Shown: piece after piece, positions 4,401-11,126 of the stretch
Position numbering within the stretch: the stretch's first letter is position 1
Layout of the letters: the number at the start of each line of letters is the position of its first letter
Source: a virus
Taxonomy: Duplodnaviria > Heunggongvirae > Uroviricota > Caudoviricetes
IMG/VR virus record: IMGVR_UViG_2703718786_000004
Length of the DNA stretch: 16,537 nucleotides
Strand: one strand, 5' to 3'
Program-made: the position numbers and the translations under genes
The notes under the pieces: model-generated
Database searches by the model: none
Told to the model about the DNA's origin: nothing
The model's input: the letters and a program-made list of their open reading frames with translations, nothing else

Positions 4401-4469
4401 GGGGATTTCATTTTTAAACTCTGCCGCATCAATCCCCAAATCAATGACCAGGTTGGCTATCTGGTCCAT
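1404..4469 (-). CDS. H: Tail tape measure protein (lambda gpH-like), about 1021 aa
   Basis: Track ORF 1404..4499 begins at a TTG; the likely start is the ATG at 4469-4467, preceded by GGAGGTG. N-terminus MDQIANLVIDLGIDAAEF resembles lambda H MAEPVGDLVVDLSLDAARF; C-terminus NNDGTNGQIGPAALKVVYD...RDGG is near-identical to the lambda H C-terminus. Long Q/A/E/R-rich helical middle is typical of tape measure proteins. Confidence 0.9.
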   Translation of the reverse strand: MDQIANLVIDLGIDAAEFKNEIPRIKNLLNGAASDAERSSARMQRFMERQTQAARQTTQAASSAATAASVHAQTVEKNAQAHERMAREVEKTRQRMEALSQKMREEQAQAMALAEAQDKAAAAFYRQIDSVKQASAGLQELQRIQQQIRQARNSGGIGQQDYLALISEVTAKTRVLTQAEEEATRQKVAFIRQLKEQATRQNLSSSELLRAKAAQLGVSSAAEVYIRKMEQAGKATHSLGLKSAAARQEIGVLIGELARGNLGALRGSGITLANRAGWIDTLMSPKGMMLGGVIGGIAAAVYGLGKAWYDGQKEGEEFNRQLSLTGHYAGVTAGQLWTLSRAISGNGITQHAAAGALAQVVGSGAFRGNDIGMVARAAAQMERSVGQSVSDTINQFERLKDDPVNAAKSLDNELHFLTATQLEQIRVLGEQGRSSDAARIAMSALAEETGRRTADIDNNLNALGSTLKYLSDLWSRFWDAAMNIGREDSLDEQIAALQEKVSRAKRLPWTASSSQVEYDQQRLNDLQEKKRQKDLQDAKEQAERNYQEQQKRRNAENAALNRMNETEAARHQREIARINAMQYADQAVRDAAIQRENERYEKALASGKKKTRETRNDEATRLLLQYSQQQAQVEGQIAAARQSAGIATERMTEAHKQLLALQQRISDLDGKKLTADEKSVLARKDELIQALTLLDVKQQELQKQTALNELKKKTIQLTSQLAEEERAQRQQHDLDIATVGMGDQQRQRYQVQLSLRQKYQQQLEQLRRDSEQKGAYNTDDYRKAEQALTESLNRQLNENRRYWQQLEVVQGNWKNGVLRAFQDFTVDADNTAGTAEQVFSSAFSNMGNGLATFVTTGKLNFKSFTSSVLSDMAKILAQATMMKSIKGIGSVLGFDLSSLSLNANGGIYQSADLSRYSGTVVNRPTFFAFAKGAGVMGEAGPEAILPLRRGADGKLGVVADIGGSGMAMFAPQYNIEINNDGTNGQIGPAALKVVYDLGKKAAADFMQQQARDGGRLSGAYR

Positions 4470-5168
4470 AACGCACACCTCCGGAAATACCTTCCCCAAG
4501 ATGCATCAGTTCTTCGTCCGTTCGCTCCGGTATCCCGTTCTCTTCCGGTAAAAGGCTGAAATCAGCCACCGCAGCATCACTGCTGCCGGACACCATTCTC
4601 ACGATCAATGCCTTCAGCGAGGCAAACTGCGCATCCATCCACACATCACTGAAGCTCTGCATCCGGAAATAATCGCCCCACTCACCAAGCTCAGTGGCCG
4701 ACATTTCCGACAGCATCCGCCGCCAGTCTGCCCGCCGGAACTCCCGGGCAAGCCGCATGACAAACTGCATTTCCCGCGTCAGGACTTTTCCGGCGTCAGC
4801 GCCTCATGCTCATCATCCCCGGCATTATCAATGGTCCCCATACCGCTCAGCGACAGAACCATCTCCGCCCCCGCACCCAGGGCATCATACGACCATGTTG
4901 TAATAACGGATGCGCAAAGCGTCTCTACATCCTTAGACTGATCCGCATTCCACAGTGAGCGGGAAACCAGCCAGGCATTGATATCCATCCCCATCCGCAG
5001 AAAAGCAATCTGTCGTTCAGCCTCCGGCAGTTCTCCCTCTTCGGCATCAAACTTTGCCGTTCGCTGCTGAACAAACGCCAGATATTCAATTCTCTGCAGC
5101 CCGGACAGCTCACTGAGCACCACGGACTGCTTTTCATAATTAAACGTGCCCTGTTTCAGAAACATCAT
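4441..5168 (-). CDS. T: G-T tail assembly chaperone fusion made by a programmed -1 ribosomal frameshift near the 3' end of G
   Basis: The T-frame ORF is open on the minus strand from 4803 to the stop at 4443-4441 and is in the -1 frame relative to G. The heptamer GGAAAAG (minus strand, plus coordinates 4791-4785) lies one codon before the G stop and is a one-base variant of lambda's GGGAAAG slippery site. Gene order V-G-T-H is the conserved context for this frameshift. The T segment overlaps the H start by about 29 nt. Confidence 0.7.
4779..5168 (-). CDS. G: Tail assembly chaperone G (lambda gpG-like), about 129 aa
   Basis: Track ORF starts at a TTG (5207). The realistic start is ATG 5168-5166 (or the adjacent ATG 5165-5163), preceded by GGTGGAG. 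MMFLKQGTFNYEKQSVVLSELSGLQRIEYLAF resembles lambda G MFLKTESFEHNGVTVTLSELSALQRIEHLAL. Stop TGA at 4781-4779. Confidence 0.85.
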   Translation of the reverse strand: MMFLKQGTFNYEKQSVVLSELSGLQRIEYLAFVQQRTAKFDAEEGELPEAERQIAFLRMGMDINAWLVSRSLWNADQSKDVETLCASVITTWSYDALGAGAEMVLSLSGMGTIDNAGDDEHEALTPEKS

Positions 5169-5180
5169 GTTCTCCACCTG

Positions 5181-5205
5181 AAAAAAAGCCCCGGATAACC
5201 GGGGC
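5181..5205 (-). terminator. Intrinsic terminator-like hairpin between V and G
   Basis: Minus-strand sequence GCCCCGG-TTAT-CCGGGGC followed by TTTTTTT: a perfect 7-bp GC stem, 4-nt loop and 7-U tract, in the 57-nt spacer between the V stop (5226) and the G start (5168). Confidence 0.6.
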
Positions 5206-5225
5206 AAATGATGAGTATCGTCCTG

Positions 5226-6967: not shown

Positions 6968-7243
6968 TTACTCAATAAAGATCATTGGCTTACCGTTAAA
7001 GCGTTCATGCCGTGTGACCGTCCAATGTTGTCCGTCATAAACAACGCGATCCCCGCGCCGTGGGCGGTATCCCAAAGAAAACACCACCAGAGAGACAGCA
7101 GGTCCGGACAGAGCATTCAGCTCTGCCAGTGTTTCGCCCGGGATCACAGCCATATCGACATCATTAATCGAGGCTGTCTTTCCCATCTTTCTGACCGTGA
7201 TCGCATCCATACGCGCTGCCAGCCGAGAAAAGGGATCAGACAT
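6968..7243 (-). CDS. Small head-tail joining / head completion protein (at the lambda FII position), 91 aa
   Basis: ORF with ATG at 7243-7241 overlapping the end of the upstream gene by 8 nt. It sits between the head genes and Z, where lambda carries FII, but I see no convincing similarity to lambda FII, so the call is positional. Confidence 0.5.
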   Translation of the reverse strand: MSDPFSRLAARMDAITVRKMGKTASINDVDMAVIPGETLAELNALSGPAVSLVVFSLGYRPRRGDRVVYDGQHWTVTRHERFNGKPMIFIE

Positions 7244-7559
7244 TGAGTTTTACCGGCACTTCTTCTGCACTGGTTCCGGCATCTGCCCAGACAACCCCGA
7301 CCAGCGGATCAGAGCCGCTGTTAGTCAGCTGAACTTTTCCGGACTTCAGATAAACCTTCTTACCCGTTTTCATGTCATCCGTTTTCAGCTTAGGCAGGAT
7401 AAACACACCTTCGGTCATGCCGTCGCCTGTTTCACCCTGTGGAATATCGGTCAGCGCCACCGCAAAAACATCACCCACCTGCACCAGATCTCCGCTGCTG
7501 ATGGCTGCACTGGCAACAATCGCCACCGTTTTTCCTTCTTCTACAAAATTCTTTGCCAT
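7236..7559 (-). CDS. Small capsid-associated protein, about 107 aa (DUF2190-like; possible head decoration or stabilisation protein)
   Basis: Track ORF starts at a TTG (7604). The likely start is ATG 7559-7557, preceded by GGAGACAG. MAKNFVEEGKTVAIVASAAISSGDLVQVGDVFAVAL... is the size and Gly/Val-rich beta-type composition I associate with DUF2190 proteins found just downstream of major capsid genes. Family assignment is from memory. Confidence 0.45.
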   Translation of the reverse strand: MAKNFVEEGKTVAIVASAAISSGDLVQVGDVFAVALTDIPQGETGDGMTEGVFILPKLKTDDMKTGKKVYLKSGKVQLTNSGSDPLVGVVWADAGTSAEEVPVKLNV

Positions 7560-7645: not shown

Positions 7646-9673
7646 TTACGCCGTACATTTCACCAGACCGCGGTGATCAACTGGCGCGACACCGGCGTCA
7701 ATACGCACTTTCGTTGTCACGCCATCCACACTGAAGCCCTCCATCTGATCAATATATGGCGTATCCACACCGTTGAGATAAGCCACTTCAATCGTATCGG
7801 AGCCTTTGGACGCAGCCAGGTAGAAGGTGGTCTGGCTGTTATCATCAAGACGAGGCTCTGCAATAACGGTCGCAAAATCTTTCACCGGGTTAATAATACC
7901 GGCGTTAATGTCAGCCCCCTTGACACTTGAGGAGCGAATGACCTGGTTAGCAACAGACTCCATCGCCGTCGGTACCAGTACGAACGCAGGACGAATATTC
8001 AGATGACGCTCCCCCTCTTTCTGAACGCGCATCAACTGGCGGGCTTTATCCAGCGATGCCACGTCCATTGCAGCGCTCTCCAGTACGTTTGCATGTTTCG
8101 CTTTATCGAACAGACTTACATTATCTGTGGAGATTTTCGGGTTAGACGTCAGAATGGCATAAACCAGATCGGCAATAGTGGATTTCGCCGCACGGCCCAG
8201 TTTCATCGGGACATCGGTCAGCATATTCAGATCATCATTGATAATGGCCTGACGGGTGATACTGAACAGCTCGCCATAGGTCGCCAGTGCAATAGTGGCC
8301 TGTTTATCTCCGGTGGTGACGTATTTATATTCCGCCCCTTCACGCACCTGACGCAGAGCACTGAAGCCCCCCATACCCACACGATGGGCAATTTTAAAAT
8401 CAGACAACTGACCTTTCCGCGTCCACTGTTCATAGGTTTCAGGGGCATCTTCCCAGCCCTGCAGAATGGCTTTGTTCGCAACATCCAGCAGAATATTACC
8501 GAAGTCAGACGTACTGTGTGTGAACGCCGCACCGACCATCTGCATCGGGTTATAACTGGAAACCCCAATACCCCGTTCAGTCAGTGACATACGGGCATAT
8601 TCACGCAGGGTCATCCCGTTGTAGACATTATCACGTTCGGTTTTTTCAAATCCGGCACGCGCCATCAGCGCCTGGCGGATCCCGTCCCCCACAAAATTAC
8701 CGTTACCGGCATAAATATGAGCCGGGGTATTTTTATTGGATGGCGTGGACTCGCGCCCCATCTCGTTCAACAACTTTTCGCGGGCCTGCTCCAGCGAACA
8801 TTCAGGATCGGCAAGACACTGAGCCTGCAGCGTCTGATAACGCCCGCCAAACATGGCAAACAGATCATTAATACCGTTTACACGCGCTTTTTGCTCTGCC
8901 AGTACCTGCGCACGGATACTGTTTTCATCCACCACGGGTGCTGCTGCCTGCACTGGCGTCCGGGAGGCTGCAGGTTCATCATCCTGTACGCGTGGAGCAC
9001 TGTTGCGTGGCGGAGTAATCATGTTTCGAATGGATTCCGGCATCTTTTTAAATTCCTCTGTACGTTTTGACTGAATACATGCCATTGCCTTAACGGCTGG
9101 CGTTACCTGATCAGCAAATCCCTGTGCCAGACATTCGGCACCGGACATCCAGGTCTCATCCGCCAGCATGGCAGCAATTTCATCGGTGGTTTTCCCGGTT
9201 TTCTGTGCATAAGCGGGTAACAGAACCGCCTCAACCTTATCGAGCAGGTCGGCATAGGTGCGCATGTCCTCCGCATCACCGCCCGTAAAGCCAAATGGTT
9301 TATGAATCATCATGAAGGTGTTTTCCGGCATAATGACCGGGTTTCCCACCATCGCAATGACCGACGCCATTGACGCCGCCACACCGTCGACATAAACGGT
9401 AATGGACGCACCATGTGTTTTCAGCGCATTAAAAATGGCGATGCCTTCAAAGACATCGCCACCCGGTGAATTAATATGGAGATTAATGTGGGTGATATCG
9501 CCCAGTGCATTCAGATCACTGATAAACTGCTTCGCTGTAACACCCCAGAAACCAATCTCGTCATAAATATAAATATCCGCGTCACTCTGGTGACCAGCCT
9601 GCATCCTGAACCAGGAATTATTCTTCGGACTGGTCGTCGGTGTGCTGTGGCTCCTGTCGTTTCGTTGCGGCAC
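7646..9673 (-). CDS. Fused prohead protease (ClpP/S14-like) and major capsid protein, about 675 aa
   Basis: One uninterrupted reading frame. The N-terminal ~200 aa carry ClpP-type catalytic motifs read from the translation: DIYIYDEIG, serine motif GVAASMAS and histidine motif MMIHKP. A Pro/Ala-rich linker and helical segment follow, then a C-terminal ~300 aa that I interpret as the capsid shell domain. Likely start is GTG 9673-9671, with AAGGAGG 5 nt upstream, overlapping the portal 3' end; alternative start ATG 9604. The track's 9865 start is an artefactual extension inside the portal gene. Confidence 0.75.
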   Translation of the reverse strand: MPQRNDRSHSTPTTSPKNNSWFRMQAGHQSDADIYIYDEIGFWGVTAKQFISDLNALGDITHINLHINSPGGDVFEGIAIFNALKTHGASITVYVDGVAASMASVIAMVGNPVIMPENTFMMIHKPFGFTGGDAEDMRTYADLLDKVEAVLLPAYAQKTGKTTDEIAAMLADETWMSGAECLAQGFADQVTPAVKAMACIQSKRTEEFKKMPESIRNMITPPRNSAPRVQDDEPAASRTPVQAAAPVVDENSIRAQVLAEQKARVNGINDLFAMFGGRYQTLQAQCLADPECSLEQAREKLLNEMGRESTPSNKNTPAHIYAGNGNFVGDGIRQALMARAGFEKTERDNVYNGMTLREYARMSLTERGIGVSSYNPMQMVGAAFTHSTSDFGNILLDVANKAILQGWEDAPETYEQWTRKGQLSDFKIAHRVGMGGFSALRQVREGAEYKYVTTGDKQATIALATYGELFSITRQAIINDDLNMLTDVPMKLGRAAKSTIADLVYAILTSNPKISTDNVSLFDKAKHANVLESAAMDVASLDKARQLMRVQKEGERHLNIRPAFVLVPTAMESVANQVIRSSSVKGADINAGIINPVKDFATVIAEPRLDDNSQTTFYLAASKGSDTIEVAYLNGVDTPYIDQMEGFSVDGVTTKVRIDAGVAPVDHRGLVKCTA

Positions 9674-11126
9674 TGCTGCCTCCTTTATCACTGGCCGGAT
9701 CGGTATCAAATACCAGATCCAGCTTGCGGTTTTCATCAATTTCGGCCTTGCGCCGACGTTTGACATCATCCGGATTACGACCACCTGCACGTACCCAGTC
9801 TGATTCTGTCGCCGCTCCACCACGAATCTGGATTTTCCAGGCCTCAGCCTCCTTAACAGGGTCAATCCACGGCATCACTGGTCCGGAATACACCGCGGTA
9901 TACAGTGAAGAACGGTCAAGATCGCGGGGTAGCCTGATAACACCGGATGCCACAGCCTGTTTCAGCCAGGCACGATACATCGGGCGGGTGACGGCACCAA
10001 TAAACCAGTCCTGCAGGATCAGGTAGCCATCAGTAGACTCAACCAGTTCCTGACGCTGGGCGCTGTAAGTGCCGTTATAGTTGCGTGCCGTACTGGAAAA
10101 ACTCAGACGACTGCCCGCCGCCACGGCACGCAACTGACCATTACGAAAAGTTTCAAGGTTAGGATTGGGACGATCCGACTTCACCATTCCGATTTCTTCG
10201 CCGGGTTTCAGATCGTCGTAAATAATGCCTGGCTGAATGGTAAGCTCGCGTTCATTCTCCTTGCTGCCATTACCATCCGGTTCATAGCTCTGCCCGTCGC
10301 CTTTCCGGATGTACATCCCCAGAGCAGCGGCGATCCTTGCTGCAGTCAGCTCAGAATCTTCATACTCTTTCAGGGCACTGAGGCGGATCAGCACACCGGA
10401 CAACAAAGACGTCCCGCGCATCTGGTGCAGACGGCGAACAAATTTAAGATGCAGCATTCGCTCTGCATCCACTTCTTTGGTTTCCATCTGCCGCCCGGAT
10501 ACGGGACGGCTTTTATACACCAGATATTTTTCGGGACGCCCCCAGTCATCAACAAACACGCCCTGATTCAGCCTGTTGCTCTCATCACTGGTCATGGGAA
10601 TAAAGTCCGGCTCGAGCGCCTCCAGCCAGAAATGAACACCGGCAGAAGGCGTCAGGCTGTTTATGCGCCCGGAAACCATCTGGGCAAACACCTCACCATC
10701 GCGCAGCCAGGTACGCAGCATCAGACGTTCCAGCATCGGACGGGTAAACTGCCCGGTGACTTCCGGACTGACAGACCATTCACTCCATCGGGTGCGTATC
10801 TCCGCTGCCAGATCACGGGCAATGGCCCCATTGCGTAATACCGGATGTGGCTCGACAATAATCCCGTTTTTCCCCACCACCCGTTCTTCCAGCTTGTCAA
10901 ATACACCAATAACCAGATCGTGGTTGTTATCAAGGTAACGGGCCTGCTCACGTAACGACACGGCCCCGTACTGGCTTAACTGGTCGGCAGTTCGGTTTTC
11001 CCGCCGGGCTTTGTGTGTCCGCGTCGTTTTTACGGCCTCATAAGCCTGGATCACCGCACGGGAACGCAGCCTTGCCGCTTTCCATCCTGGTGAAAAAACG
11101 CCAATCACATCATCAAGAATTGCCAT
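9618..11126 (-). CDS. Portal protein, about 502 aa
   Basis: Large ORF between the W-like gene and the protease-capsid gene, the conserved portal position. Start reset to ATG 11126-11124, which overlaps the W-like stop (ATGA) and is preceded by GAGG. Acidic C-terminus. Not obviously similar to lambda B. Confidence 0.75.
   Translation of the reverse strand: MAILDDVIGVFSPGWKAARLRSRAVIQAYEAVKTTRTHKARRENRTADQLSQYGAVSLREQARYLDNNHDLVIGVFDKLEERVVGKNGIIVEPHPVLRNGAIARDLAAEIRTRWSEWSVSPEVTGQFTRPMLERLMLRTWLRDGEVFAQMVSGRINSLTPSAGVHFWLEALEPDFIPMTSDESNRLNQGVFVDDWGRPEKYLVYKSRPVSGRQMETKEVDAERMLHLKFVRRLHQMRGTSLLSGVLIRLSALKEYEDSELTAARIAAALGMYIRKGDGQSYEPDGNGSKENERELTIQPGIIYDDLKPGEEIGMVKSDRPNPNLETFRNGQLRAVAAGSRLSFSSTARNYNGTYSAQRQELVESTDGYLILQDWFIGAVTRPMYRAWLKQAVASGVIRLPRDLDRSSLYTAVYSGPVMPWIDPVKEAEAWKIQIRGGAATESDWVRAGGRNPDDVKRRRKAEIDENRKLDLVFDTDPASDKGGSSAATKRQEPQHTDDQSEE

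Follow-up and report, generated by a model that had tools for sequence, protein, structure and literature searches.

A 16,537-nucleotide stretch of DNA from a virus of the Caudoviricetes (IMG/VR record IMGVR_UViG_2703718786_000004, here called the window) carries on its minus strand a long open frame at 7646-9865 in which a prohead protease, a scaffold-like segment and a major capsid protein follow one another without a stop codon. The locus raises the question of whether these head proteins come from one gene, where translation of that gene begins, and whether every capsid subunit must carry its own protease. We see that the frame is the known tripartite head gene of Gifsy-2-like lambdoid prophages, and that this gene is already described, common and curated. 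This agrees with a preliminary description of the window, made from its letters, which had called such a fusion probably not new. The part that might be new is limited to a ribosome-binding site and ATG lying inside the gene and found across the family.

Over the 2.2-kb stretch holding the gene, DNA identity is 100% to Enterobacteria phage cdtI and 99% to phages mEp460, Ayreon, Tritos and others. The chromosome of E. coli O127:H6 E2348/69 also holds a 100% identical copy, which RefSeq names 'ClpP-like prohead protease/major capsid protein fusion protein'. A match is present in 2,135 of 5,426 complete E. coli genomes (about 39%), with an uninterrupted frame at a coverage of at least 80% in 1,997 complete genomes of this species. 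At full length, the protein scores 985.1 bits against the NCBIfam profile NF045540 (cut-off 475), aligning to positions 2-651 of 652, and it gives an end-to-end match to PHROG 133; the family comprises about 10,600 clusters at 50% identity. The protease and coat genes of Gifsy-2 are described as fused in one published account (PMC12315714, citing Effantin et al. 2010, Virology 402:355). The Gifsy-2 gene STM1034.3n and the gene of the window share 70% identity over 668 amino acids (aa), and this orthology is accompanied by synteny of the head module, which extends to 12 distant loci. We therefore consider it very probable that the frame serves a Gifsy-2-type lambdoid prophage (that of phage cdtI and E2348/69) as its single head-shell gene, with the assembly course proposed for it below.

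The frame and the parts of the gene are as follows.

7646-9865, minus strand: maximal open frame, 739 codons from the first TTG, with its stop at 7648-7646.
7646-9673, minus strand: coding sequence (CDS) of the ClpP-like prohead protease/scaffold/major capsid protein fusion, 675 aa, 73.5 kDa, GTG start.
9101-9583, minus strand: ClpP-like serine protease domain, residues 31-191, placed by Pfam CLP_protease, NF045542 and alignment with ClpP.
8927-9019, minus strand: variable Pro/Ala/Gln-rich linker, residues 219-249, placed by alignment.
8753-8926, minus strand: scaffold-like (delta-domain-like) three-helix segment, residues 250-307, placed by AlphaFold and alignment.
8696-8752, minus strand: variable connector of lower model confidence, residues 308-326, reading ESTPSNKNTPAHIYAGNGN.
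7649-8695, minus strand: major capsid protein region, residues 327-675.

A stop-free run of 739 random codons would arise with a chance of ~4e-16. The same CDS coordinates are given in RefSeq for E2348/69, and 675-aa proteins are present at NCBI; the part of the frame upstream of 9673, which overlaps the portal gene, is probably not translated in this frame. Profile, alignment and model data strongly support a product consisting of a short N-terminal extension, a Ser/His protease, a flexible linker, scaffold-like helices and an HK97-fold capsid domain. The protease half matches Pfam CLP_protease (E=4.8e-36) and the NCBIfam profile NF045542 (Clp_rel_HeadMat; 216 bits, cut-off 120). Its serine motif GVAASMAS is encoded at 9385-9362 and its histidine motif MMIHKP at 9313-9296. 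Ser101 (codon 9373-9371) and His124 (codon 9304-9302) align with the catalytic Ser and His of the solved ClpP structures 1y7o and 6hwm, and both are unchanged across 26 homologues, while at the third triad position the alignment places Glu173 where ClpP has its catalytic Asp. Directly after the protease domain, the homologue alignment shows a conserved segment, KAMACIQSKRxEEFxKMPxxIRNMI.

The Pro/Ala-rich stretch that follows reads PPRNSAPRVQDDEPAASRTPVQAAAPVV in the translation, and its length varies among homologues. A full-length AlphaFold model built from a shallow alignment (21 sequences, 75-96% identity) was unusable, with a mean predicted local distance difference test (pLDDT) score of 36.5, and the linker scored below 50 in that model. 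Instead, residues 250-675 were modelled with an alignment of 104 diverse representatives, giving a pLDDT of 93.5 and a predicted template modelling score (pTM) of 0.80. The scaffold-like segment, which is conserved in the homologue alignment, forms three helices in this model (model residues 2-24, 31-39 and 45-58; pLDDT 91-98). The connector is the only stretch of the model at pLDDT 66-70, and its sequence and length vary among homologues. In the capsid region, an N-terminal helical extension with three helices (327-385) precedes an HK97-fold core (~386-675). The C-terminus is thus an HK97-fold major capsid protein, as in NF045540, and a helical N-terminal scaffold domain is joined to it in the manner of HK97 gp5. 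The preliminary description had read much of this from the translation, namely a single frame without a stop over about 2 kb, ClpP-type Ser and His motifs, a Pro/Ala-rich linker followed by a helical stretch, and a capsid-sized C-terminal domain. All of these features hold: both domains lie in one frame, the two halves score as predicted in separate profile searches, and the modelled C-terminal part contains the expected capsid fold.

A second, internal start signal was found between the protease and the rest of the protein.

9054-9058, minus strand: internal Shine-Dalgarno (SD)-like GAGGA, 10 nt upstream of ATG 9043, with an A/T-rich spacer.
9041-9043, minus strand: candidate internal in-frame start, Met211, directly after the protease domain.

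Initiation at Met211 would yield a linker-scaffold-capsid protein of 465 aa and 50.7 kDa that lacks the protease. Close relatives were compared in a set of 24 non-redundant loci with 50-99% identity. The Met211 codon is ATG in all 24, and an SD-like motif precedes it in every case; across the 16 columns assessed, the 15 other conserved start-type codons show such a motif in 0-1 of the 24 loci. Within the motif, codon 206 is GAG in each of the 21 loci where it encodes Glu, and AAG or CAG where the residue is Lys or Gln, and its third-position G is invariant (24/24). The share of GAG among all Glu codons is 0.38, and the second-ranking Glu column reaches 0.82. Gifsy-2 carries an internal SD and ATG of the form GAGGAG-N9-ATG, at residue 221.

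An alignment-based scan of IMG/VR yielded close relatives only. We see the same tendency in more distant relatives. For 12 metagenomic loci with 37-50% identity, the best SD-preceded in-frame start anywhere in the gene is an ATG in the linker in most cases. A larger, unselected set comprised 61 IMG/VR loci with 31-58% identity, 56 of them non-redundant, and all 61 are long fused open reading frames (ORFs). In 33 of the 56 loci, where 4.0 would be expected (P ~3e-25), the internal start ranked first falls in the 56 codons that directly precede the scaffold/capsid part. When ATG codons with an SD of duplex energy -6 kcal/mol or lower were counted in 50-codon bins, the bin upstream of the scaffold/capsid part was occupied in 40 of 61 loci, and other bins in 0-11. 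The usual form in these distant relatives is K-E-x-x-x-M, encoded as AAGGAG-N6-7-ATG. Several family members are recorded at 411-471 aa, gene callers having placed their start at the internal site. We considered whether these short proteins are stand-alone scaffold-capsid genes and rejected this, as the frame is open for 127-666 codons upstream of the match in 75 of 75 relatives examined; they are therefore more likely to be internal-start gene calls.

Overall, the internal SD and ATG at 9043 appear to be conserved across relatives while being unannotated in database records. A literature search returned no description of an internal start or of cleavage sites among the accessible sources, which did not include Effantin et al. 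2010; a preprint on CBASS deals with an unrelated fusion of protease and scaffold. The simplest reading suggests a nested gene, by analogy with lambda C/Nu3 or herpesvirus UL26/UL26.5. We judge the prospects evenly balanced that the nested 465-aa scaffold-capsid protein is made from GAGGA and ATG 9043 in vivo. Our confidence is likewise divided down the middle on the broader proposal that the tripartite gene is a nested gene pair, with the short form making up most of the shell and the full-length form a minority protease carrier, as a rule across the family. The preliminary description had protease and scaffold delivered in cis; the fusion itself stands, but the internal SD and ATG suggest that capsid subunits need not all carry the protease in cis.

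Several observations weigh against a nested gene. The 12 distant loci were hand-picked and are somewhat biased. The internal SD of the window is modest, with a duplex energy of -6.0 kcal/mol that is the fourth best in the gene. Once identity drops below about 50%, relatives no longer keep the Met211 column itself, and their site lies elsewhere in the linker. These last two points, a moderate signal and an internal Met whose place differs from clade to clade, also favour the strongest competing explanation, to which we accord a little less than even confidence. It holds that only the 675-aa polyprotein is made, with GAGGA-N10-ATG being a relic of an ancestral boundary between protease and scaffold-capsid genes, or a translational pause site. 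Each shell subunit would then carry its own protease in cis, and the resulting internal cargo of ~17 MDa (our own estimate, not computed by a tool) would still fit a T=7 procapsid; all database records annotate a single CDS, as this explanation would have it. However, a relic would not be expected to hold an invariant ATG, together with an invariant synonymous G in codon 206, through 24 lineages that diverge to 50% identity, nor to recur as AAGGAG-N6-7-ATG in the unselected loci at the frequency given above. Nor would it lead gene callers to pick the internal start independently despite a frame that is open upstream in every relative examined.

A related arrangement is seen in Pseudomonas phage LPPA33 (locus L040, 2407-4395), where a protease without ClpP motifs is joined to a homologous scaffold-capsid part. 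This fusion is probably of the NF045541 type. At its residue 213, where the protease domain has just ended, it has GAGAGG-N8-ATG, so that ClpP-like and non-ClpP fusion families may share the internal-start feature.

The start of the full-length product lies within the preceding portal gene.

9618-11126, minus strand: lambda-family portal gene (TIGR01539, 1.4e-136; Pfam Phage_portal_2).
9679-9685, minus strand: Shine-Dalgarno AAGGAGG, inside the portal codons D-K-G-G.

The portal gene ends with TAA at 9620-9618 and shares its last 56 nt with the fusion gene. AAGGAGG at 9685-9679 is followed by 5 nt (CAGCA) and then by GTG at 9673-9671. Across 24 loci from many enterobacterial genera, which give 21 distinct sequences, the combination of AAAGGAG and (G/A)TG does not vary; this invariance includes portal-synonymous third positions, while flanking portal-synonymous positions vary. 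In one locus (L023), ATG replaces GTG. The 675-aa proteins at NCBI and the RefSeq annotation of the E2348/69 chromosome both begin at 9673. Translation from GTG 9673, 56 nt within the portal gene, is thus strongly supported by comparative data, and the preliminary description had placed the start at this codon, with the same AAGGAGG 5 nt upstream.

Counting against this start, the RefSeq phage record NC_009514 begins the gene at ATG 9604, as does the GenBank record of phage cdtI. Translation from this ATG, 14 nt past the portal stop, would give a 652-aa protein, perhaps by reinitiation or coupling after portal termination. We think this unlikely, even though ATG is a better start codon than GTG and the Met at 9604 is conserved within Enterobacterales. 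No SD precedes ATG 9604 in any locus compared, whereas the upstream AAGGAGG and start are invariant, with a change from GTG to ATG in one lineage. The homologues from Gifsy-2, Photobacterium, Pseudomonas, Oceanisphaera and Parashewanella have no Met in this column, so their translation must begin further upstream. In addition, an SW[FY] motif upstream of the 9604 column is conserved, including in homologues that have no Met there, and RefSeq bacterial annotation begins at 9673. The start given in the cdtI records is not supported by the comparative data.

The weakest alternative, to which we attach almost no credence, is that the long ORF is an artefact in which errors of sequencing or assembly, or the decay of a defective prophage by mutation, have merged two or three separate genes for protease, scaffold and capsid; aberrant 1,159-aa portal-protease-capsid fusions arising from indels do exist in databases, but comparative data already refute this reading, as the frame is uninterrupted in the 1,997 complete E. 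coli genomes counted above, in the propagating phages mEp460, Ayreon and Tritos, in Gifsy-2, and in ~100 loci from many genera and metagenomes, and a curated hidden Markov model (NF045540) covers the full-length fusion.

The aberrant fusions themselves form a group of a dozen or so portal-protease-capsid proteins of 1,135-1,159 aa in the databases, 99% identical to this locus and extending across the 9618-9865 overlap (among them P0006, P0011 and P0043). Programmed frameshifting was considered as their source and rejected. Their junctions differ (PVKE|LRPG near 9850 and GGSSA|QRND near 9673), which fits random indels; these proteins would thus seem to stem from 1-nt indels or assembly errors that arose independently where the two frames are both open.

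Homology with Gifsy-2, HK97 and lambda leads us to propose the following course of assembly for the tripartite gene product. The capsid domains would assemble on the portal into a procapsid whose interior holds the N-terminal parts, so that the protease would be concentrated within the shell. There it would remove itself and the scaffold segment, and the fragments would exit. On DNA packaging the shell would expand, to be stabilised by the cement protein encoded just downstream. The internal GAGGA (9058-9054) and ATG 9043 would additionally yield the 465-aa scaffold-capsid protein without protease, leaving the protease-bearing form in the minority, as in lambda C/Nu3. A gene of the Gifsy-2 type would further be expected to build a T=7 shell with trimeric decoration. 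It counts against this scheme that processing, cleavage sites and capsid geometry are all taken from homologues. Two candidate cleavage zones are plausible. A cut in the modelled connector at 308-326 would leave a mature protein of about 39 kDa. A cut at about 366-386, where the Pfam capsid model and a Mu-gpT-like solved capsid begin to align, would leave about 32 kDa and would match a central region of ~200 residues. By analogy with HK97, several cuts within the scaffold part are likely.

The order of the surrounding head module is DUF1441/small terminase, gpA-type large terminase, gpW-like adaptor, lambda-family portal, fusion, Phage_cement_2, and Z/U/V-type tail genes. Annotation, Pfam and PHROG show no other capsid or scaffold gene in the module. 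The gene directly downstream of the capsid gene is the following.

7236-7559, minus strand: head decoration (cement) protein gene (Pfam Phage_cement_2, 1.3e-20; phrog_122 head decoration, 1.4e-46).

Its position after the capsid gene is kept in 12 of 12 distant loci. The cement protein belongs to Pfam Phage_cement_2 (DUF2190), and no match to the lambda gpD family is found among the matches listed. The cement gene is followed by a 91-aa ORF at 6968-7243, minus strand, for which the names conflict across sources: the Pfam family 'Gifsy-2' (PF13856) gives 'ATP-binding sugar transporter from pro-phage', RefSeq gives 'DNA breaking-rejoining protein', and PHROG gives 'minor tail protein'. A Phage_attach (lambda gpFII-like) gene occupies this position in most of the distant syntenic loci that have a gene there, so the 91-aa ORF probably encodes a head-tail joining protein. 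Further along, upstream of the tape-measure gene, two neighbouring ORFs lie at 4441-5207, minus strand, with 4779-5207 named 'minor tail protein' and 4441-4770 'tail assembly protein'; their counterparts in Gifsy-2 are annotated as lambda gpG and gpT homologues that form a frameshift hybrid.

The gene mainly confirms good annotation. This prophage type, which is found in ~39% of complete E. coli genomes and also among the Salmonella Gifsy phages, has no other shell gene. Product names in phage records are inconsistent, including protease/scaffold, head maturation protease, Nu3, protease C, and major head or capsid protein, and under several of these labels the phages can therefore seem to have no capsid gene. 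If the internal start is used, the model would shift from a protease on every subunit to a nested dosing of protease like that of lambda or the herpesviruses. An unannotated product would then be added in thousands of genomes, together with a general and so far unannotated rule for protease stoichiometry in such phages.

Among known systems, Gifsy-2 is the closest. In its gene, too, a ClpP-like protease is followed by a central region and then by the capsid protein, and the surrounding synteny is shared, with a gpA-type terminase, gpW-like adaptor, lambda-type portal, fusion, cement protein and Z/U/V-type tail genes; in the window and in Gifsy-2 alike, the start of the fusion overlaps the portal gene. 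The two differ in the sequence and length of the N-terminal extension and Pro/Ala linker, and Gifsy-2 has no Met at the position of ATG 9604. The Gifsy-2 gene product reportedly joins a ClpP-like protease to the capsid protein through a central domain of ~200 residues that may serve in scaffolding, and the T=7 shells of Gifsy-2 are said to have been modelled with HK97 gp5 and lambda gpD. Experimental data on the tripartite gene (cryo-EM, processing) are reportedly confined to Gifsy-2.

The NF045541 'scaf_prot_MCP2' fusions, such as that of Pseudomonas phage LPPA33, use the same solution of protease, scaffold and capsid in a single ORF. The scaffold-capsid part is homologous to that of the window protein, at 32% identity; against the NF045541 profile, the window protein scores 400 bits over residues 220-672, below the cut-off of 525. 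The N-terminal protease of the NF045541 fusion has no ClpP motifs and so is not ClpP-like; a related match in phage B8b is annotated 'peptidase U35'.

HK97 gp5 shares a helical delta-like scaffold segment lying N-terminal to the HK97-fold capsid domain, which in HK97 is removed by the prohead protease. The HK97 protease gp4 is encoded by a separate gene and belongs to a different family, whereas the protease of the window is fused. The HK97 shell is held by the covalent cross-links of its chainmail, whereas the window has a gene for a cement protein.

Lambda shares its type of terminase, portal and tail genes with the window, as well as the addition of a small stabilising protein to the shell. 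The preliminary description had contrasted the fusion with separate lambda genes for C, Nu3, D and E; this needs refinement in one respect, as Nu3 is nested inside gene C and is not a fully separate gene. Lambda gpC is a protease-scaffold polyprotein with the scaffold gene Nu3 nested in frame, and ATG 9043 is proposed here to follow the same logic. The lambda protease is of the S49 (SppA-like) type, whereas that of the window is S14 ClpP-like: no match to Peptidase_S49 is listed for the window protein, and SppA_dom scores 22 bits against a cut-off of 155. Capsid protein E of lambda comes from a separate gene and is uncleaved, in contrast to the fused capsid protein of the window, and D precedes E in lambda while the cement gene follows the capsid gene in the window. 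The window thus lacks the S49 protease and separate capsid gene of a C/Nu3-type system, but it does contain, past the protease domain, a conserved in-frame sequence signal for internal ribosome binding and initiation. Having a ClpP/S14-like protease and a fused capsid, the gene is not a member of the C/Nu3 family, but it may work like one.

The herpesvirus pair UL26/UL26.5 has no sequence relationship to the window gene; its capsid protein is separate, and its nested product comes from a separate transcript rather than from an internal ribosome-binding site. In that pair, in-frame nesting sets the ratio of protease-bearing to protease-free assembly protein, and the arrangement is analogous to that proposed here for the starts at 9673 and 9043.

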